Shown here piece after piece: positions 940-7,023 of a DNA stretch of 64,000 bases. A model generated the notes under the pieces. The model was not told where the DNA came from. It was given only the letters and a program-made list of their open reading frames with translations, and searched no databases. The stretch's first letter is position 1, and every line of letters starts with the position of its first letter. The DNA comes from an uncultured SAR86 cluster bacterium (GTDB lineage Bacteria; Pseudomonadota; Gammaproteobacteria; Magnimaribacterales; AG-339-G14), in NCBI GenBank assembly GCA_902594855.1, contig CACJNS010000001.1, forward strand, positions 561,335 through 625,334. Direction: 5' to 3'. A program made the translations under genes and the position numbers.

Positions 940-2064
940 ATGAGTCGTTCTTTATCAGTTATCTTATTAATTGCAGCAATTTCCATCGCTTTTGTTTTTT
1001 ATCTTTCAAATCAAAAACCTGAAATAAATTACGACAGATTTAATTTGGTATCACCAGGCATCCTAAGAACTCCGGATGATCGTTTTGAAAATTTGGAGGA
1101 TTTTCCATTTAAAGCTAATTATCTAACTATTGGCGACACCAGAATTCACTATTTAGATGAAGGCCCAAAAAACGGAGAGGTAATTTATCTTCTTCATGGT
1201 GAGCCGGCTTGGAGTTATTTATTTAGAAAAATGATTCCTGTACTTGTAGATGCAGGTTATCGAGTTATAGCGCCTGATATGGTTGGCTTTGGAAAATCGG
1301 ATAAATATATTTCTGTGGAAGATTACACCCATCAAATGCACGTAGATAAGATGACTCAATTAATTGTAGAGCTGGACTTAAATAACATTACTGCTCATGT
1401 GCATGATTGGGGTGGGCTCGTTGGACTTAGAGTTGTTGCTGAAGAGCCAGATAGATTTTCTAGAATTATTGCTTCCAACACTTCTTTAATTGCTACTGGA
1501 AGGGGTGTTCTAAATGATATGTTTAGTTTTATAGCTTATCCACTTTTTAAATTTGCAATATGGTTCCAAGGACCAGCAACTTGGGAAGAATTTATAGGGG
1601 GCAGTGGATTTACGGGCTGGATAAGGTATTCAAAATCAACTGATAACATTGATGTTGGTGGCATAATGCAGACCCTTGGCACTGTCTCAGCTAGTGAAAG
1701 AGTTGGATATGAAGCTCCATATCCTAATGCAACCTATAAAGCAGGCGCTCAAATATTTCCTTTTTTAATCCCAAGTGAACTAAGAAAAAATGAAAAAGCC
1801 TACAGGGATGTTTTTGAAAAATGGGATAAACCATTTTTAATTGCCAACAGTGATAATGACCCCGTTACTAGTAACAACCCTAGGTTGGTAGAGATGTTAA
1901 AAAGAGTGCCAACGGCTGAAGAGATTGTCATCAAAGGACCAGGTCATTTTATTCAAGAAGAAGCTGGGCCTGAATATGCCCAATTAATAATAGATTTTAT
2001 AAACGGAAATCCTAAAGGTTTTTCAGTCGAAAAAAAGTTAGATAACTTTTTAAATTTGGAATAA
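940..2064 (+). CDS. Haloalkane dehalogenase-like alpha/beta hydrolase (DhlA type) with N-terminal membrane anchor
   Basis: Collinear with Xanthobacter DhlA as I recall it: RTPDDRFENL, LLHGEPAWSYLFRKMIP, nucleophile elbow HVHDWGG, cap Trp GFTGWIRY and His in GPGHFIQEE. The first ~25 aa are hydrophobic (SVILLIAAISIAFVFYL). Confidence 0.7.
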   Translation: MSRSLSVILLIAAISIAFVFYLSNQKPEINYDRFNLVSPGILRTPDDRFENLEDFPFKANYLTIGDTRIHYLDEGPKNGEVIYLLHGEPAWSYLFRKMIPVLVDAGYRVIAPDMVGFGKSDKYISVEDYTHQMHVDKMTQLIVELDLNNITAHVHDWGGLVGLRVVAEEPDRFSRIIASNTSLIATGRGVLNDMFSFIAYPLFKFAIWFQGPATWEEFIGGSGFTGWIRYSKSTDNIDVGGIMQTLGTVSASERVGYEAPYPNATYKAGAQIFPFLIPSELRKNEKAYRDVFEKWDKPFLIANSDNDPVTSNNPRLVEMLKRVPTAEEIVIKGPGHFIQEEAGPEYAQLIIDFINGNPKGFSVEKKLDNFLNLE

Positions 2065-2071
2065 CTAGTTT

Positions 2072-2290
2072 ATGGAAGGATATGACTTGCTAATGATATT
2101 TTGGTCAGGTTTCTTAATCTTTGGATTATTTATGGCCTTCCAAGATTATCGGAAGTGGATTACTTCAAATGAAGCCAATAGGAGCTTGTCTCTTAGAGAA
2201 ATATTTTCAATCTTTGGTCAAGGAATTGTCTTCGTAATAATTGCGTTAGCAGGGATTATTTTTTTTACCTTAAATCAACATTTAATTTAG
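2072..2290 (+). CDS. Small two-helix membrane protein, unknown function
   Basis: 72-aa ORF with two clear hydrophobic helices, tightly packed between neighbours. I recognise no family. Confidence 0.4.
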   Translation: MEGYDLLMIFWSGFLIFGLFMAFQDYRKWITSNEANRSLSLREIFSIFGQGIVFVIIALAGIIFFTLNQHLI

Positions 2291-2293
2291 CAG

Positions 2294-2638
2294 GTGAAAT
2301 ACCTAATTTTCATTCTTGCTTTGTTAGCCGTCTGCTGCAGTGATAACTTTAGAGAACTGAATTGTGAATCTTCTTCAGATGGAAGTAGAAGTTATATTTT
2401 TAATAAACAAAGGGTTCAAGTAATAACATCAGAAGATGAAGGCAGTTGGAGTTGCGATTATTTTCGACAGACTCAAGATTTCTTAAGATGTAGGGTCTAC
2501 TCAGCAGACAATAGTAGTATGGATATTGTTTATTCTGATTACGAGGAATCAATAAACGATACTAGAGTTTATTTTGGGGCAAATAACCCGAGCTATTCAA
2601 AAACATATACTTGGAAAGGCTATTGCGGAAAATCCTAA
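2294..2638 (+). CDS. Putative lipoprotein, unknown function
   Basis: GTG start and a signal peptide ending in the lipobox-like LLAVC|C. The mature part is Cys-containing and hydrophilic. Confidence 0.45.
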   Translation: MKYLIFILALLAVCCSDNFRELNCESSSDGSRSYIFNKQRVQVITSEDEGSWSCDYFRQTQDFLRCRVYSADNSSMDIVYSDYEESINDTRVYFGANNPSYSKTYTWKGYCGKS

Positions 2639-2658
2639 CCCTAAAATCCTTTTTAAAA

Positions 2659-2704
2659 TGGTGCCCAGAGGTGGAATCGAACCACCGACACAAGGATTTT
2701 CAGT
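2659..2704 (-). repeat. Island-distal att repeat: displaced 3' 46 nt of tRNA-Phe
   Basis: tggtgcccagaggtGgaatcgaacCaccgacacaaggattttcagt matches 6858-6903 at 44/46 positions. It lacks the tRNA 5' half, so it is a fragment and not a gene. Confidence 0.9.
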
Positions 2705-2754
2705 TCTTTACAAGTAGTCGTAAACACTTATTACTACAATGTTTTTAATAATAG

Positions 2755-2827
2755 TGTGTTAAAAAATGTGTTAAATGACTAACTTTAGTGTGTTAGTCGA
2801 TGCCTTCTAAAGTGCTGAATTAACACA
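2755..2827. repeat. Left-end array of TGTGTTA(A/G) motifs (candidate arm-type/iteron sites)
   Basis: tgtgttaa at 2755 and 2767, tgtgttag at 2789, inverted ttaacaca at 2820, and a degenerate agtgttaa at 2931. The same motifs recur at 6740-6811. Confidence 0.6.
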
Positions 2828-2964
2828 TTATTCTTGTCTCTCTAGACATTTTTATCATATCAAAAAAATATGTGTTTTTTTTAAAAAAGTCCCTTACCAA
2901 AATTGAACTTCCATGAGATTATGAATGTGTAGTGTTAAAAACTACTTTTTTATAAATATAGTTA

Positions 2965-3465
2965 ATGAAAATGAAAAATGAATATCAAAAGTTCTTTAGT
3001 GCTGATTGCTTTACGCATCATATAACTTTATCTCCTTCACATCTAAACGAATATTCAATATTGCCTCTAATACGAAAAATAGAATTTAAATTAAATAAGA
3101 TTTTTCTAAATTCTAATTTTCCAAAATATGTGACTACAGATAAATTTAAATTTTTTATTTTTCCTGAAGACTCTGATAGACATTTACAACATTTTCATAT
3201 GCTTCTCTATTCTCCCTCAAAGAAAGAACGAGAAAGTAAAAGTAAAGATTATTGCATTGCATGTAAATTCATAGAAAAACCATTTTTTGAAACCTGTGAT
3301 TTTTGCACAGCAAGAGTTTTAAATGATTTGTTTGCTGAAGAAATTCCGAATGTAGATGTTCAAGTCAATATTACATCTGACTTTGACCATTACGATAATT
3401 TTTACGCAACAAAGAAACAAAGATTTGAATTAGATTATAAAGATAGTTATCTAGTGTGTTCATAA
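2965..3465 (+). CDS. Putative miniature HUH rolling-circle Rep-like protein (Rep_1/pC194-pUB110-like motif order) with CxxC...CxxC insert
   Basis: Ordered motifs: I FTHHITLS, II HLQHFHMLLY (HUH + hydrophobics), III NFYATKK (YxxK). The spacings of ~57 and ~70 aa are similar to pUB110 Rep, and PNVDVQVNI resembles its PNVKVQMI segment. CIAC-x13-CDFC lies between motifs II and III. Confidence 0.45.
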   Translation: MKMKNEYQKFFSADCFTHHITLSPSHLNEYSILPLIRKIEFKLNKIFLNSNFPKYVTTDKFKFFIFPEDSDRHLQHFHMLLYSPSKKERESKSKDYCIACKFIEKPFFETCDFCTARVLNDLFAEEIPNVDVQVNITSDFDHYDNFYATKKQRFELDYKDSYLVCS

Positions 3466-3467
3466 TT

Positions 3468-3523
3468 GCTGCTCTATCTTGAGAGTAATTTAACTATCTG
3501 TTCATGCAGTTCTACTTCTGCAT
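3468..3523 (+). other. Candidate double-strand origin: nick-site-like TATCTTGAGAGTAAT plus small hairpin
   Basis: CTTGA at 3478-3482, 13 nt after the Rep-like stop, resembles the CTTG/ATA nick core of the pC194 family and phiX174. ATGCAG-N8-CTGCAT hairpin at 3504-3523. Confidence 0.3.
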
Positions 3524-3607
3524 TGTGATTTCTATTATCTGAAAAAACATAAATAGTAATATGAAGACATCATCAAAAATAAAACAATTACAAAGAAGAT
3601 TACAAAC

Positions 3608-3811
3608 ATGAAAAGAAAAAATTACTCATCAAATCCTCTGCAAGTTCGATTGCATACAATTACAGAAGAATCTCTGAATAATTTAATTCAAGATAATGAA
3701 TATTGTCAGAAGAAGAATATTATTTCTAAATCTGATGCTGTTCGTTCTGCATTATTTAATTTCTGCAAAGACTACGAGTCTTATAAATTTAATAAATTAA
3801 ATTCACTTTAA
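3608..3811 (+). CDS. Putative ribbon-helix-helix (CopG/Arc-like) DNA-binding protein
   Basis: The LQVRLHTITEESLNNLIQ...SKSDAVRSALFNF pattern fits beta-strand/helix/helix of RHH regulators. 67 aa. Confidence 0.4.
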   Translation: MKRKNYSSNPLQVRLHTITEESLNNLIQDNEYCQKKNIISKSDAVRSALFNFCKDYESYKFNKLNSL

Positions 3812-4015
3812 ACACTACATGAAAACACTAATAAAAGAGTGTATGTGCTTGGGGAGAAATCAGTTCTAGTCGACTAATATATCGGGAAATTTTTAAGAAA
3901 AAATATGAAATCTCAACCTTTGAAAAAACACATTAATGATTTAAAGAAACAATTAAATCAAATCAAGAAAGATATAACTGCACTCGAAAAACTTTTTGTA
4001 AATTTAGAGAAAGAT

Positions 4016-4768
4016 CTATAAATCAATATAGGCATCAAACATTTCTTTAAAGTCAGATGATTTGACTAATCTTATGCCTCCACCATGATTATGTTTTTTA
4101 CCAATATTTGTGCCTGAACGATATACACCCAGTCTGTTATCGTATCTTGCTTTACCTTCTTTGATTAACTTAATGCATTTTTCGAAATTAAATCCCATAA
4201 ATGCTTTGCCTTCTATGTATTTAAAATGTGTTCTACCATCAATTTTTTCTTCTTCTGCTTTCACAACAAATGTATTTTTAAGTTTTGAACTTGCAGTTCT
4301 TAATGAGTCAAAAGTCCAATAAACACTTGAATCTATTGGTTTTTCATTAAGGTCACAAAGTAATATTTTTAATTTATGTTCAGCATCATCAATCTGTATT
4401 TTCATTTTGTATTTGCCATATACTACTGACCATCTATGTGCATAAATTGATGTTCTGAAAACTTTGATATGAGGATACTCTTCATCACTTATGCCCCAGT
4501 TTTCCCTCATATATTCATCACCTTTTTCAGGAAAATCAGGTTTACAGGTGAAAAGACTTGCTGCAGATTTTGTATGTTGTCTTTGACTCTTACATTCCCA
4601 ACCTTCAAAGTCAGCATCTTTTAGATTATTTTCCTGAACACCTAGAATTGTTTCAAAAGTATTTCCAATTGCTCCATCGTTTTTTTCTGCAAATGGTTTG
4701 TCACTTTCAATGAAACCAAGATTTTTGATTCGTTGGAATTCTGATTTAACTCTATTTACATCTACCAC
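4016..4768 (-). CDS. Type II restriction endonuclease, MvaI/BcnI family
   Basis: Matches my recollection of R.MvaI: GAIGNTFETILG, catalytic DADFEGWECKS (D...ExK), SSVYWTFDSL and RLGVYRSGTNIGKKHNHGGGIRL. GTG start, directly downstream of the methyltransferase. Confidence 0.75.
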   Translation of the reverse strand: MVDVNRVKSEFQRIKNLGFIESDKPFAEKNDGAIGNTFETILGVQENNLKDADFEGWECKSQRQHTKSAASLFTCKPDFPEKGDEYMRENWGISDEEYPHIKVFRTSIYAHRWSVVYGKYKMKIQIDDAEHKLKILLCDLNEKPIDSSVYWTFDSLRTASSKLKNTFVVKAEEEKIDGRTHFKYIEGKAFMGFNFEKCIKLIKEGKARYDNRLGVYRSGTNIGKKHNHGGGIRLVKSSDFKEMFDAYIDL

Positions 4769-4802
4769 AAATAAAGCATGCCATATGCTTTATTATTTGT
4801 GG
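4765..4802 (-). promoter_or_regulatory. M-R intergenic hairpin that base-pairs the GTG start of the endonuclease gene
   Basis: The mRNA-sense sequence CCACAAAUAAUAAAGCAUAUGGCAUGCUUUAUUUGUGG folds into 15 bp with a 3-nt bulge and a 5-nt loop. The GUG at 4768-4766 lies in the basal stem, and no Shine-Dalgarno sequence precedes it. Confidence 0.55.
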
Positions 4803-4807
4803 AGTCA

Positions 4808-5557
4808 TTATTCAGTAAAAAGGTCTTCTGATTTCTTTAGTCTATCTTCTGAAATATCAATATATTTCTTACTTATCTCACTTCCTAGATATTTTCTCTT
4901 TAGTCTTTTTGCAACAACTGCTGTCGTTCCAGTTCCCATAAATGGGTCATAGACAACATCACCTTCTTCAGAGAAATTCTCTAAAATTTTTGCAACTAAT
5001 TCTTTTGGGAAAACTGCTCCATGATTTTCTCCCCCACGACTTCTTTCTCTTTTAATTTCCCATATATCATCAAGAGTTCCTCTTTCAAAACTTCCTCTTT
5101 TTCTATATTGCCTACTAATCGGATAATCTTTATCAAAAACAAGAATTAGTTCTGTTCTTCTATTAAGAACTTGTTTTTGTATAGAGGGTTGAGCATTTCC
5201 TTTATCCCATACAATAATATCTTTAAGATATTCAGAAAATTCACCTATCATCTTAAAAATTGACCTCTTGCTGCCTGTGACGATTTGAATGTTATAGAAA
5301 ATTAATTCACTTACTCTAATCAATTCCCTTAAGATCTCTGTATGAAGTTTGTTGTATTCATCAATCGGAAGATTATCATCAAACTCTGTGTATTTTGTGC
5401 TAATTTCTTTAACAATTTGTCGTGAACAATACTCTCCATTTCTTATTCTTAAATTCATATTGTAAGGTGGAGAAGTGATGACTAAATCAACAGAGTCATC
5501 TTTCATCTTCTTTAAAGTTGAAAGACAATCTTCATGATAAATTTTATTTAGTTTCAT
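4808..5557 (-). CDS. Beta-class N4-cytosine (or N6-adenine) DNA methyltransferase
   Basis: Motif IV DLVITSPPYNM lies N-terminal to motif I VVYDPFMGTGTTAVVA (beta permutation). SPPY rather than DPPY favours m4C, matching MvaI/BcnI-type systems. Confidence 0.85.
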   Translation of the reverse strand: MKLNKIYHEDCLSTLKKMKDDSVDLVITSPPYNMNLRIRNGEYCSRQIVKEISTKYTEFDDNLPIDEYNKLHTEILRELIRVSELIFYNIQIVTGSKRSIFKMIGEFSEYLKDIIVWDKGNAQPSIQKQVLNRRTELILVFDKDYPISRQYRKRGSFERGTLDDIWEIKRERSRGGENHGAVFPKELVAKILENFSEEGDVVYDPFMGTGTTAVVAKRLKRKYLGSEISKKYIDISEDRLKKSEDLFTE

Positions 5558-5582
5558 ATTTAAATTATATCCTCTTAATCAT

Positions 5583-6731
5583 TTATATAACTCGCAAGAA
5601 CTCTTTTAAATCAGTATTTAACTGACTTTTCGGAAAATAGAAGTCATCAATCATTTTCAGTGATGTGTCTGCTCTTCTTGCAATTTGAATATGACTAATT
5701 TTTGTATTCATAAGATTCATGATTATTGATGTATGTCTTAAAGAATATGCAGTGCAATTATTGCCATCATCATCTGTTCTCAAATCACATCTCTCAAGTA
5801 AAGTTCTAAATTGTGCAGTCATTACACGCATTGCATGTCTTCTGTTTTGATGCTCATTTAAAAATAAGAAATCAGATTTTTTCCAACCTTTATTTCTTTT
5901 CTTCATATCTCTAAAAATATAACTTCCAGTAGATAGAGTCTGAACAGACATCTGTTGATTTTTTCTATTAACTTTAAATTGTAGATATTCTGCTTTTGTA
6001 TCTTTTTCTTTTTTCTCTTCAATATCACCATAACGAAGAGAGTAAACTTCAGAGATAGTAGGTCTTAACATACTAGACATCATGAACACTATAAAATCAT
6101 GTAAATCATATGTAATCGTATATCTAGTGCCATTGTGCATCACGACACTTTCTCCAATGAGTTCTAACGACTTCTTTTGTAGTTTCTTATACGAATCTCT
6201 AGTAAAGAATCCTCTGCGTTCAGATTTGACTCCTCGAATTTTAGAAAATTTCACATAATTTTCTGCCATATCTAAAATTTGTCGAAGTAAAGAACGATGT
6301 TTATTGATTGTTGATTTTGCAAGTTGTCTTTCTTTGTGCAAGTTAGTGAAAAAATCTTCTGTATCTTCTCTAGTAATTGATTGAACTTCACGATTTTTGA
6401 AAAACTCTAAAATTCCATTTTTACGATTGAGTAGAGAAGTGACTTCTTTTTCTGCACTGATGCCACTTGCTGTAATTTTGCCTTTTGTTCTTTCTATGAT
6501 TTTGTTTGCAAAATGCTCGATTGTCTTATCTTTATCAAATATGAGTTTTTTGCTACCAGTCATCAAATCTTGCTGATATTCAAATGCTTTCTTTCTTGCT
6601 TCAGTTTGTGATGTTGTTTTTAGTGATTTGCGATGCTGTTTTCCATCTACATTGATACATACATACCAATTTTGACTGCGATTACGAGTGTAGATACTCA
6701 TGTAATCAAATAATTTAATTGTCTTGCTCAT
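5583..6731 (-). CDS. int: Tyrosine recombinase / phage-type integrase
   Basis: C-terminal catalytic signatures MLRPTISEVYSLRYGDI (box I Arg), AYSLRHTSI (HxxR) and MIDDFYF (Tyr). Adjacent to the tRNA-Phe attachment site. Confidence 0.9.
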   Translation of the reverse strand: MSKTIKLFDYMSIYTRNRSQNWYVCINVDGKQHRKSLKTTSQTEARKKAFEYQQDLMTGSKKLIFDKDKTIEHFANKIIERTKGKITASGISAEKEVTSLLNRKNGILEFFKNREVQSITREDTEDFFTNLHKERQLAKSTINKHRSLLRQILDMAENYVKFSKIRGVKSERRGFFTRDSYKKLQKKSLELIGESVVMHNGTRYTITYDLHDFIVFMMSSMLRPTISEVYSLRYGDIEEKKEKDTKAEYLQFKVNRKNQQMSVQTLSTGSYIFRDMKKRNKGWKKSDFLFLNEHQNRRHAMRVMTAQFRTLLERCDLRTDDDGNNCTAYSLRHTSIIMNLMNTKISHIQIARRADTSLKMIDDFYFPKSQLNTDLKEFLRVI

Positions 6732-6739
6732 TCAAACCC

Positions 6740-6811
6740 TTAACACACTTGAGATACAAGAATTAACACACAAATAATGTGTTAAAGTGTGTTAGTAGTT
6801 ATCATAACACA
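6740..6811. repeat. Right-end array of TGTGTTA(A/G)/TTAACACA motifs
   Basis: ttaacaca at 6740 and 6763, tgtgttaa at 6778, tgtgttag at 6788, ataacaca at 6804. The pair aatgtgttaaa + agtgtgttagt occurs at both island ends with different spacing. Confidence 0.6.
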
Positions 6812-6857
6812 TAAAATGATTAAAAATGTCTGAAAGTGTTGATTTTACTGCATTTGA

Positions 6858-6933
6858 TGGTGCCCAGAGGTAGAATCGAACTACCGACACAAGGATTTTC
6901 AGTCCTTTGCTCTACCAACTGAGCTATCTGGGC
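6858..6933 (-). tRNA. tRNA-Phe (anticodon GAA)
   Basis: The reverse complement reads GCCCAGATAGCTCAGTTGGTAGAGCAAAGGACTGAAAATCCTTGTGTCGGTAGTTCGATTCTACCTCTGGGCACCA. It forms a 7-bp acceptor stem, has a CTGAAAA anticodon loop and a TTCGATT T-loop, and encodes CCA. It is close to E. coli tRNA-Phe. Confidence 0.95.
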
Positions 6934-6974
6934 AATCGAGCGCACAATATTAGAAGAATCGTAAGTTAAGCGCA

Positions 6975-6988
6975 ATCGATTAATCGAT
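6975..6988. promoter_or_regulatory. Perfect 14-bp palindrome ATCGATTAATCGAT in the tRNA-Phe/transporter divergent region
   Basis: Self-complementary by inspection. It lies 36-49 bp upstream of the GPH transporter start. Candidate operator; function unknown. Confidence 0.25.
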
Positions 6989-7023
6989 AGAAATTAGAAT
7001 ATTTAAAGTATTATGAACAGGGG

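Follow-up and report, generated by a model that had tools for sequence, protein, structure and literature searches.

How a Type II restriction-modification (R-M) system that lacks a controller (C) protein delays or limits its nuclease on entering a new cell is only patchily understood. The question is raised by a cassette in the stretch of DNA studied here, a window of 64,000 nucleotides (nt) from a gammaproteobacterium of the SAR86 cluster (34% G+C; assembly GCA_902594855.1, contig CACJNS010000001.1, positions 561,335 to 625,334). In this cassette, which rides on an integrative element, a methyltransferase gene (M) is followed on the same strand, after a spacer of 39 nt, by an endonuclease gene (R). 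We found that the spacer holds a stable hairpin with the R start codon in its base, that the pairing has been kept up by compensatory changes in at least one independent lineage, and that a conserved −10-like motif stands at leaderless spacing before both R and M. The spacer is probably a protein-free means of keeping a toxic nuclease low. The two genes and the spacer are as follows.

4016 to 4768, minus strand: R gene, MvaI/BcnI-family restriction endonuclease of 250 amino acids (PF15515, E 3e-47, residues 10-240)
4808 to 5557, minus strand: M gene, N4/N6 DNA methyltransferase of 249 amino acids (PF01555, N6_N4_Mtase, E 4e-40)
4769 to 4807, minus strand: M-R spacer of 39 nt (from the sequence and alignments of relatives)

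A hairpin buries the start codon of R

A sequence-only reading of the window had proposed that the spacer transcript folds into a hairpin of 15 bp, with a 3-nt bulge and a 5-nt loop, which pairs the R start codon in its basal stem and so damps or delays translation of the endonuclease relative to the methyltransferase. Folding with RNAfold returned this geometry at the place proposed.

4765 to 4802, minus strand: core RNA hairpin, 15 bp with a 3-nt bulge and the 5-nt loop AUGGC (4784-4780), from RNAfold
4766 to 4768, minus strand: GUG start codon of R in the basal stem, paired with C4801, A4800 and C4799, from the fold and the alignment of N-termini

The hairpin, CCACAAATAATAAAGCAT-ATGGC-ATGCTTTATTTGTGG as DNA and CCACAAAUAAUAAAGCAU-AUGGC-AUGCUUUAUUUGUGG as RNA, fills positions 4802-4765. 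Its minimum free energy was −13.9 kcal/mol, compared with a mean of −5.5 ± 2.3 for shuffled sequences (z = −3.62), and none of 200 shuffles folded as well; the calculation thus bore out the proposed fold. In a context of 91 nt the same hairpin was obtained with two further pairs (C4804-G4762 and U4803-A4763) across a 1-nt bulge, which extends it to 4762-4804, and the TAA stop codon of M (4810-4808) lies 4 nt upstream of this extended stem. The stem is stronger at sea temperatures, reaching −18.8 kcal/mol at 25 °C and −22.4 kcal/mol at 15 °C. All three bases of the GUG were paired with a probability of 1.00, as had been predicted for the basal stem, while the start codons of 55 crudely called genes of the window had a mean pairing of 0.48, with 9% of them reaching 0.9. 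The hairpin sequence occurs only once in the window, and a repeat element was rejected on that ground. A search of Rfam over 3800-7000 (E ≤ 1) returned only tRNA-Phe, the one further hit, inside R, being a chance resemblance below threshold to the model of a eukaryotic snoRNA.

R genuinely begins at this GTG. An in-frame TAA stands at 4792-4790 with no ATG, GTG or TTG between it and the GTG, in agreement with the earlier statement that no in-frame ATG is nearby, and the protein start, MVDVNRVKSEF, lines up position by position with that of 41 homologues, among them several that have ATG as this codon. No AGGAG-like sequence precedes the R start. This absence had been noted correctly, yet it does not set R apart: a motif like that of Shine and Dalgarno (AGGA, GGAG, GAGG or AAGG, at −18 to −5) precedes only about 25% of the 55 crudely called genes, so that its lack at R is ordinary for this genome. 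Shine-Dalgarno use appears to be low in the SAR86 genome.

Compensatory changes and recurrent occlusion among relatives

We collected 123 related loci, labelled L001, L020 and so on; six further loci on viral contigs were too distant to use (27-29% identity). Those with at least 60% R identity were grouped into 16 lineages. The closest genome match is the chromosome of the cultured SAR86 strain HIMB1674 (CP151794), which has the same M-R spacer and an R protein that is 96% identical. In the marine clade the tandem order M→R is the rule and the spacer measures 36-42 nt in most lineages, the exceptions being L031 (53 nt), L032 (27 nt) and L110 (6 nt). The M proteins of L030 (165-986, with KKPVA-type repeats) and L031 (359-1204, 281 amino acids) carry lysine-rich C-terminal extensions, and the distance to R is lengthened in both.

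The window structure was compared across relatives in an ungapped alignment of 12 spacers with 57 columns. On the fixed structure 70.6% of the alignment cells were paired, against 33-48% when the partners were slid, and the covariation score was 0.209, where shuffled columns gave 0.135 (1/500). Of the 57 positions, 9 differ between L023 and the window. Eight of these changes form four exactly compensated pairs (columns 16-43, 21-41, 23-39 and 26-36), none falls in the loop, and uncompensated changes number zero. Both L023 and L111 (82-83% R identity) keep the architecture of 15 bp with a 3-nt bulge, L111 altering the sequence of the bulge only, and the bulge holds its place and length while its sequence varies (AAT, ATA, CAC). 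All 17 pairs of the extended stem are Watson-Crick in the window, L001, L023 and L111, and a shifted version of the stem is kept in L106, which has an ATG start. The window hairpin is real and is partly conserved across relatives.

Approximately 8 of the 16 lineages bury the R start codon at p ≤ 0.05 relative to dinucleotide-shuffled upstream sequences, a result that was stable over three sizes of the folded region. They do so with different, non-homologous helices. In L099-L104 the GUG has as its partner a CAC close by on the 5' side of the M stop codon, and the helix (CACAUAA/UUAUGUG) takes in that stop; in L108 the occluding helix is GACCAU/AUGGUC and in L028 it is GCCAUAU/AUAUGGC. Judged from these spacers, start-codon occlusion is a recurrent theme that appears to be selected and yet dispensable.

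Minus-10-like motifs at leaderless spacing before R and M

The best-conserved part of the spacer, more so than the stem, is the loop with the 3' arm. It contains a motif that recalls a promoter element, and a hexamer of the same kind stands before M.

4775 to 4785, minus strand: candidate extended −10 element TATGgCATGCT before R, from conservation, with a putative promoter function
5564 to 5569, minus strand: perfect TATAAT that ends 6 nt short of the M ATG (5557), candidate promoter for a leaderless M mRNA, from conservation

Before R, the TG occupies 4783-4782 (−15/−14 relative to the start codon) and the hexamer CATGCT 4780-4775 (−12 to −7), followed by 6 nt (4774-4769) and G4768. The combination T-15, G-14, A-11 and T-7 was present in 12 of the 16 lineages and in 2 of 53 control genes. 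When the spacers were aligned on the start codon, information content peaked at −15 to −10 and at −7 and was lowest at −9. This profile resembles a sigma70 extended −10 element (TRTGn + NAnnnT), and, with 6 nt between hexamer and start codon, an R mRNA begun from it would be leaderless. In the wider family (44 distinct upstream regions), TGnNAnnnT most often stood 5-7 nt ahead of the start codon (19 of 31 matches), a sharp peak.

L020 and L022, in which the hairpin is largely lost, still have the motif. In L025-L027 some 870 nt have been inserted between M and R and only about 45 nt of the old spacer is left, with the motif still in place and R intact, and in L058, where M and R diverge from a 58-nt intergenic region (1114-1171), the motif is kept as TGcCATAAT, 5 nt and ATG. 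Three lineages fetched later served as a prospective check; the motif was found in one of them (L122, with a 7-nt gap). Two side observations concern these loci. The insertion in L025, L026 (931-1806) and L027 holds two small open reading frames (ORFs), L108 being the uninterrupted version, and the more distant relatives of the marine clade with divergent M and R (L042/L058, L035 and L080) have short intergenic regions with two copies of TTTCTGsCAT.

Before M, a perfect TATAAT with a gap of 5-8 nt to the ATG was found in 8 of 12 lineages and in none of the 53 control genes, and it adjoins differing upstream genes (integrase, resolvase and others). This arrangement suggests that the M mRNA may be leaderless as well. 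An SD-like (Shine-Dalgarno-like) AAGAGGA also occurs upstream of the M ATG, at a distance that is too great (about 13 nt).

Proposed control of R by two signals in the spacer

We tentatively favour a model in which two superimposed signals, the hairpin and a weak leaderless promoter, would keep R low or late relative to M, and we would place its probability close to even but somewhat short of it. On read-through RNA coming from M or from the integrase gene upstream, the hairpin would block de novo initiation at the GUG, which has no Shine-Dalgarno sequence. The extended −10 element in the loop and 3' arm may in addition give rise to a distinct R mRNA whose 5' end falls on the start codon or beside it. 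Such a message would not contain the 5' arm and would therefore escape the hairpin, whose action would be confined to read-through RNA; in the predicted fold of the leaderless message the first three bases are moderately paired (0.38-0.52). A weak hexamer together with a 5'-terminal GUG would make a poor R message, and M would be expressed from a strong leaderless promoter (TATAAT-N6-ATG). The net outcome would be a strong M and a weak, insulated R, with no controller protein and no host-specific Shine-Dalgarno interaction, a design that would suit a 4-kb integrative element moving among streamlined marine genomes. The leaderless route and an opening of the stem coupled to translation of M are not mutually exclusive.

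If the model is right, the 39-nt spacer does its work with three inexpensive parts (the insulating hairpin, the GUG start and the weak promoter of a leaderless message), which would be portable among hosts that barely use Shine-Dalgarno sequences. It would also supply a rule for re-annotating R-M systems in marine metagenomes, namely a −10 hexamer that ends 6 nt before both starts. If the model fails, the locus offers one more predicted start-occluding hairpin, which is of modest interest. A broader version seems to us doubtful. It would make a host-independent timing circuit, needing neither a C protein nor a Shine-Dalgarno interaction, widespread among streamlined marine bacteria with MvaI-like systems: leaderless M from a consensus TATAAT with AUG, leaderless R from a deliberately weak TGnCATGCT with GUG, a hairpin that insulates R from the strong M read-through transcript, and a conserved CAY that doubles as an anti-start.

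Several results weigh against the two-signal model. With respect to the hairpin, L020 (91% R identity) keeps 12 of the 17 pairs, with a start-codon pairing of about 0.56, and has largely lost the structure, and in L022 (83% R identity) the stem is replaced by a small CAUGC-UUC-GCAUG hairpin that abuts the GUG. Between 6 and 8 of the 16 lineages show no significant occlusion in the shuffled-upstream test. In the PvuII system, hairpins that occlude the ribosome-binding site (RBS) had no detectable effect when deleted (PMC2997769). Furthermore, the wobble strand test was neutral (G-U in 11 cells, A-C in 9), so that the counts cannot separate a sense RNA from a DNA palindrome.

With respect to the promoter, the hexamer CATGCT matches TATAAT at 3 of 6 positions and has C at −12, and no convincing −35 element was found for the R motif. 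L118 keeps A-11 and T-7 without the TG, the gap in L121 is 10 nt, and in the freshwater clade the TGn-hexamer is separated from the ATG by just 2 nt, a spacing at odds with a leaderless message. C-12, A-11 and U-10 also complement the RUG start codon, and in L028, L042, L080 and L122 TGCCAT...ATGGCA forms a perfect 6-bp complement; because of this CAY/RUG complementarity, part of the conservation of the motif could reflect an anti-start role of the RNA rather than a promoter. Finally, R starts with GUG in the window and in 7 of the 16 lineages, giving no 5'-terminal AUG, and leaderless translation in Escherichia coli strongly prefers AUG over GUG. L118 itself (1501-3330, 69% R identity, on a 767-kb contig) has the order R→M, with 137 nt of non-coding DNA before R and 306 nt between the genes.

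The covariation that the sequence-only reading had put forward as a check gave a divided result: four compensated pairs in L023 and L111 and occlusion in 8 of 16 lineages support the hairpin, and its loss in L020 and L022 does not. The idea of translational damping fared similarly. It is favoured by a stable, compensated hairpin that buries the start, and it is weakened by a structure that is not family-wide and by a −10-like motif that is better conserved. Since the hairpin is not conserved across the family, it behaves as a tunable accessory and not as the core of control.

Alternative explanations

R may instead be translated only from a bicistronic M-R mRNA, the hairpin either damping the GUG statically or being opened by ribosomes that terminate at the M stop codon. 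This is the model of the sequence-only reading, with coupling as an optional addition and without a separate R promoter. We regard it as the main alternative and a real possibility, albeit an unlikely one. All of the evidence on hairpin stability, covariation and occlusion applies to it, and under coupling R would be made only when M is translated, and less often. In the window, L020, L022, L023 and L106 the 5' arm begins at a distance of 4 nt from the M stop, and folding of the stem places that stop next to the R start. The geometry of L099-L104 fits especially well, since there the helix includes the M stop and has to be melted by any ribosome that terminates; in L028 the M stop lies within the first of two hairpins that stack, L110, with its 6-nt spacer and an SD-like AAGGGG, is a plain coupled operon, and Cfr9I is cited in PMC12707154 as a precedent for hairpin control of an endonuclease start. 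However, the bicistronic model leaves unexplained both the fixed spacing of T-15, G-14, A-11 and T-7 and the parallel before M. The motif and an intact R survive the insertion in L025-L027, the R→M order of L118 and the divergent orders, where no coupling to M is possible, and several lineages pair their start codon with neighbouring bases (−12 to −10), away from the M stop.

A second alternative, which we consider improbable, is that only the extended −10 element is functional and that the palindrome is incidental, is kept by templated mutation of a quasi-palindrome, or acts at the DNA level. It agrees with the far better conservation of the motif than of the stem, and with L020 and L022, in which the hairpin is lost and R is intact. 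A stem in which 17 of 17 pairs are Watson-Crick (window, L001, L023 and L111) is equally a DNA palindrome, and the wobble test takes neither side. This explanation is strained by the four compensated pairs with zero uncompensated changes, for which our own combinatorial estimate gives a chance of the order of 1e-6 without selection or templating. Templated correction should, moreover, erase the 3-nt bulge, which instead keeps its place and length, and burial of the start recurs through unrelated helices in 8 of the 16 lineages.

It is very improbable, in our view, that the palindrome, the TGsCAT sequence or both serve as an operator for a DNA-binding regulator such as a small protein of the element or the methyltransferase. 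Features of this kind do occur: in L038 (2974-3000) and L063, distant freshwater-clade relatives with divergent M and R genes, the operator-like inverted repeat (T)ATGACAT-N11-ATGTCAT(A) abuts the R start, TTTCTGsCAT is found twice, 21 nt apart, in L042/L058, and ORF67 of the element (3608-3811) looks ribbon-helix-helix-like by eye. Nevertheless, the half-sites vary freely (AAAGCAT versus AAGAGAAT) between close lineages that share only M and R, no helix-turn-helix (HTH) or C gene was detected, and M is a single PF01555 domain of 249 amino acids without an extra DNA-binding domain. As neither the spacer nor the element contains CCNGG, binding of the methyltransferase or the endonuclease to its site and switching by methylation are unlikely.

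Equally slight is the chance that the hairpin serves the M (integrase-M) transcript, by stabilising its 3' end, as a site of processing or as a weak terminator, and lowers R mRNA rather than translation of R. The stable stem does stand immediately past the M stop, yet no U-tract follows it (GUGGUAGAUGUAAAUAG), the terminator scan was empty at this site on both strands, and the 3' arm lies partly within the R ORF and includes the start codon, which a pure 3' end of M would not need. That the hairpin is a chance, non-functional structure of AT-rich DNA is hardly credible: low-GC spacers fold easily, and shuffled upstream sequences already pair the G-rich start region with a mean probability of about 0.66-0.68, but chance is opposed by the z score of −3.6, the 0 of 200 shuffles, the compensated changes and the recurrence across lineages.

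Other readings of the same sequence were tried and rejected. An upstream ORF from the loop ATG at −16 was set aside because the conserved core is TG, not ATG (CTG or TTG in L107, L030, L032, L034 and L042), and because the out-of-frame ORF is not conserved in length and runs on in L099 and L028. A sigma54 promoter (TGGCAC-N5-TTGC) does not meet the GG-N10-GC spacing. A methylation-sensitive promoter of the CfrBI type was rejected for lack of CCNGG in the spacer and the element, an argument that holds if the specificity is MvaI/BcnI-like. On inspection of the sequence, the equivalent of T-7 is not conserved on the other strand, which counts against an antisense promoter in the palindromic motif. 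No intrinsic terminator was found at the site by the scan on either strand, and the tail GUGGUAGAUG has no U-tract.

The cassette and its carrier element

The structure nearest to R is that of R.MvaI (2oa9, E 5e-27), followed at a distance by R.BcnI (E 4.5e-5), and 89 R homologues were found. The endonuclease signature and the neighbouring amino-methyltransferase agree with a Type IIP system of the MvaI/BcnI family, and M adjoins R among relatives repeatedly. The remaining features of the element are listed here.

5583 to 6731, minus strand: tyrosine-type integrase of the carrier element (phrog_1, E 2e-22; Phage_int_SAM domains below or near the Pfam cut-off)
6858 to 6933, minus strand: tRNA-Phe (GAA), the integration site, from a tRNA search and Rfam
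2659 to 2711: far-end attachment (att) repeat, 53 nt with 4 mismatches to the 3' part of the tRNA (6858-6910)

Since the 3' 53 nt of tRNA-Phe are repeated at 2659-2711, the R-M cassette rides an integrative element of about 4.15 kb. Its cargo consists of ORF166 (2965-3465, with a weak Rep-like match), ORF67 (3608-3811), R, M and the integrase gene. ORF67 encodes 67 amino acids on the plus strand, convergent with R, and shows by eye a ribbon-helix-helix-like pattern (LQVRLHTITEESLNNL ... SKSDAVRSALFNF); it had no match in Pfam or PHROG, and HIMB1674 has a 67-amino-acid ORF in the matching position (L001 3987-4190). Searches of phage and plasmid collections by similarity found no related cassette, and a literature search on the regulation of SAR86 R-M systems returned nothing relevant.

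No C-protein or HTH gene was detected in any ORF of the element, and the gap between M and R is only 39 nt; the sequence-only reading, which saw in the hairpin an alternative to C-protein control, was right in this respect. For a C-box operator (for example GACT-N3-AGTC about 18 nt before a leaderless start), the spacer holds no AGTC partner. The GACT at 4806-4803, directly after the M stop, is nearly invariant in spacers that have otherwise diverged, with AACT or GAAT in some (A8, C9 and T10 of alignment A2). Neither the stem nor the −10 motif accounts for it, and it resembles a lone C-box half-site.

Within the element (2712-6857) there are 0 CCAGG, CCTGG, CCCGG or CCGGG sites, compared with about 4.8 expected from their density in the window. 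This shortage bears only indirectly on whether the system would recognise CC(W/S)GG and protect it by N4-methylcytosine. Over the whole window CCNGG shows no avoidance (observed/expected 0.96), and GATC is under-represented (observed/expected 0.73).

Comparison with known systems

In Cfr9I the M gene reportedly lies upstream of R on the same strand, and the two are said to be translationally coupled. A hairpin limits access to the Cfr9I endonuclease start (Lubys et al. 1994, Gene 141:85, as cited in PMC12707154), and, because such hairpins were already on record there, the idea of a start hairpin for an endonuclease is not new in kind. Like Cfr9I, the present system is Type II, has no C protein and is predicted to limit access to the endonuclease start by mRNA structure. 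As described, the two are set apart here by the 39-nt spacer, the GUG without a Shine-Dalgarno sequence and the burial of the start codon itself rather than of the RBS. An extended −10-like element inside the hairpin is a further difference.

Leaderless transcripts are established in R-M control regions, with both ATG and GTG starts cited (PMC2632904, PMC4824078). Leaderless C(R) transcripts are found in the C-controlled systems PvuII, AhdI, Esp1396I and Csp231I (PMC2632904, PMC2275141, PMC2691842, PMC4824078, PMC2997769), and BcnI has a C gene and C protein (PMC2997769, PMC2632904). With these systems the SAR86 cassette would share a leaderless, poorly translated message and a promoter element at a fixed short distance from ATG or GTG. 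Unlike them, it has no C gene or C-box, and its candidate leaderless genes are R and M. Sorokin et al. could recognise no −10 ahead of leaderless C genes (PMC2632904); in the present cassette, by contrast, nothing is better conserved than the −10-like signal.

Hairpins of −4 kcal/mol or lower are predicted to occlude the initiation region of the endonuclease in 9 of 11 C-dependent systems (PMC2997769). The one upstream of pvuIIR has −4.6 kcal/mol, and its deletion was without clear effect (Kaw and Blumenthal 2010, PMC2997769). The window hairpin differs from that of PvuII in its stability (−14 to −16 kcal/mol at 37 °C) and in its record of compensatory change.

In Csp231I a read-through C-R transcript is accompanied by R's own promoter (PMC4824078). 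The SAR86 cassette would be alike in having two routes to R mRNA, one bicistronic and one from a dedicated, here candidate, promoter just upstream; it differs in that Csp231I has a C protein, an R transcript that is not described as leaderless, and no reported occluding hairpin. In EcoRI and Eco29kI the endonuclease is controlled by antisense RNA (PMC12707154). There, as predicted here, RNA pairing blocks the start of endonuclease translation post-transcriptionally. The pairing in those systems is in trans, from reverse promoters inside R, whereas in the present case it is in cis within the spacer. A convincing antisense promoter was not found at this locus.

Translational coupling mediated by RNA structure is known from the coat-replicase and lysis genes of phage MS2 and from atpHA of E. 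coli. The atpHA coupling is also cited in PMC2997769. As in these cases, a downstream start is paired with the end of an upstream ORF and could be opened by the ribosome, a description that fits L099-L104 especially. Unlike them, the partner of the start codon lies away from the M stop in several lineages. Overall, the present case combines known ingredients in an M→R cassette without a C protein, with a hairpin that is much stronger than that of PvuII, and control by the spacer probably varies devices already known and does not amount to a new principle.

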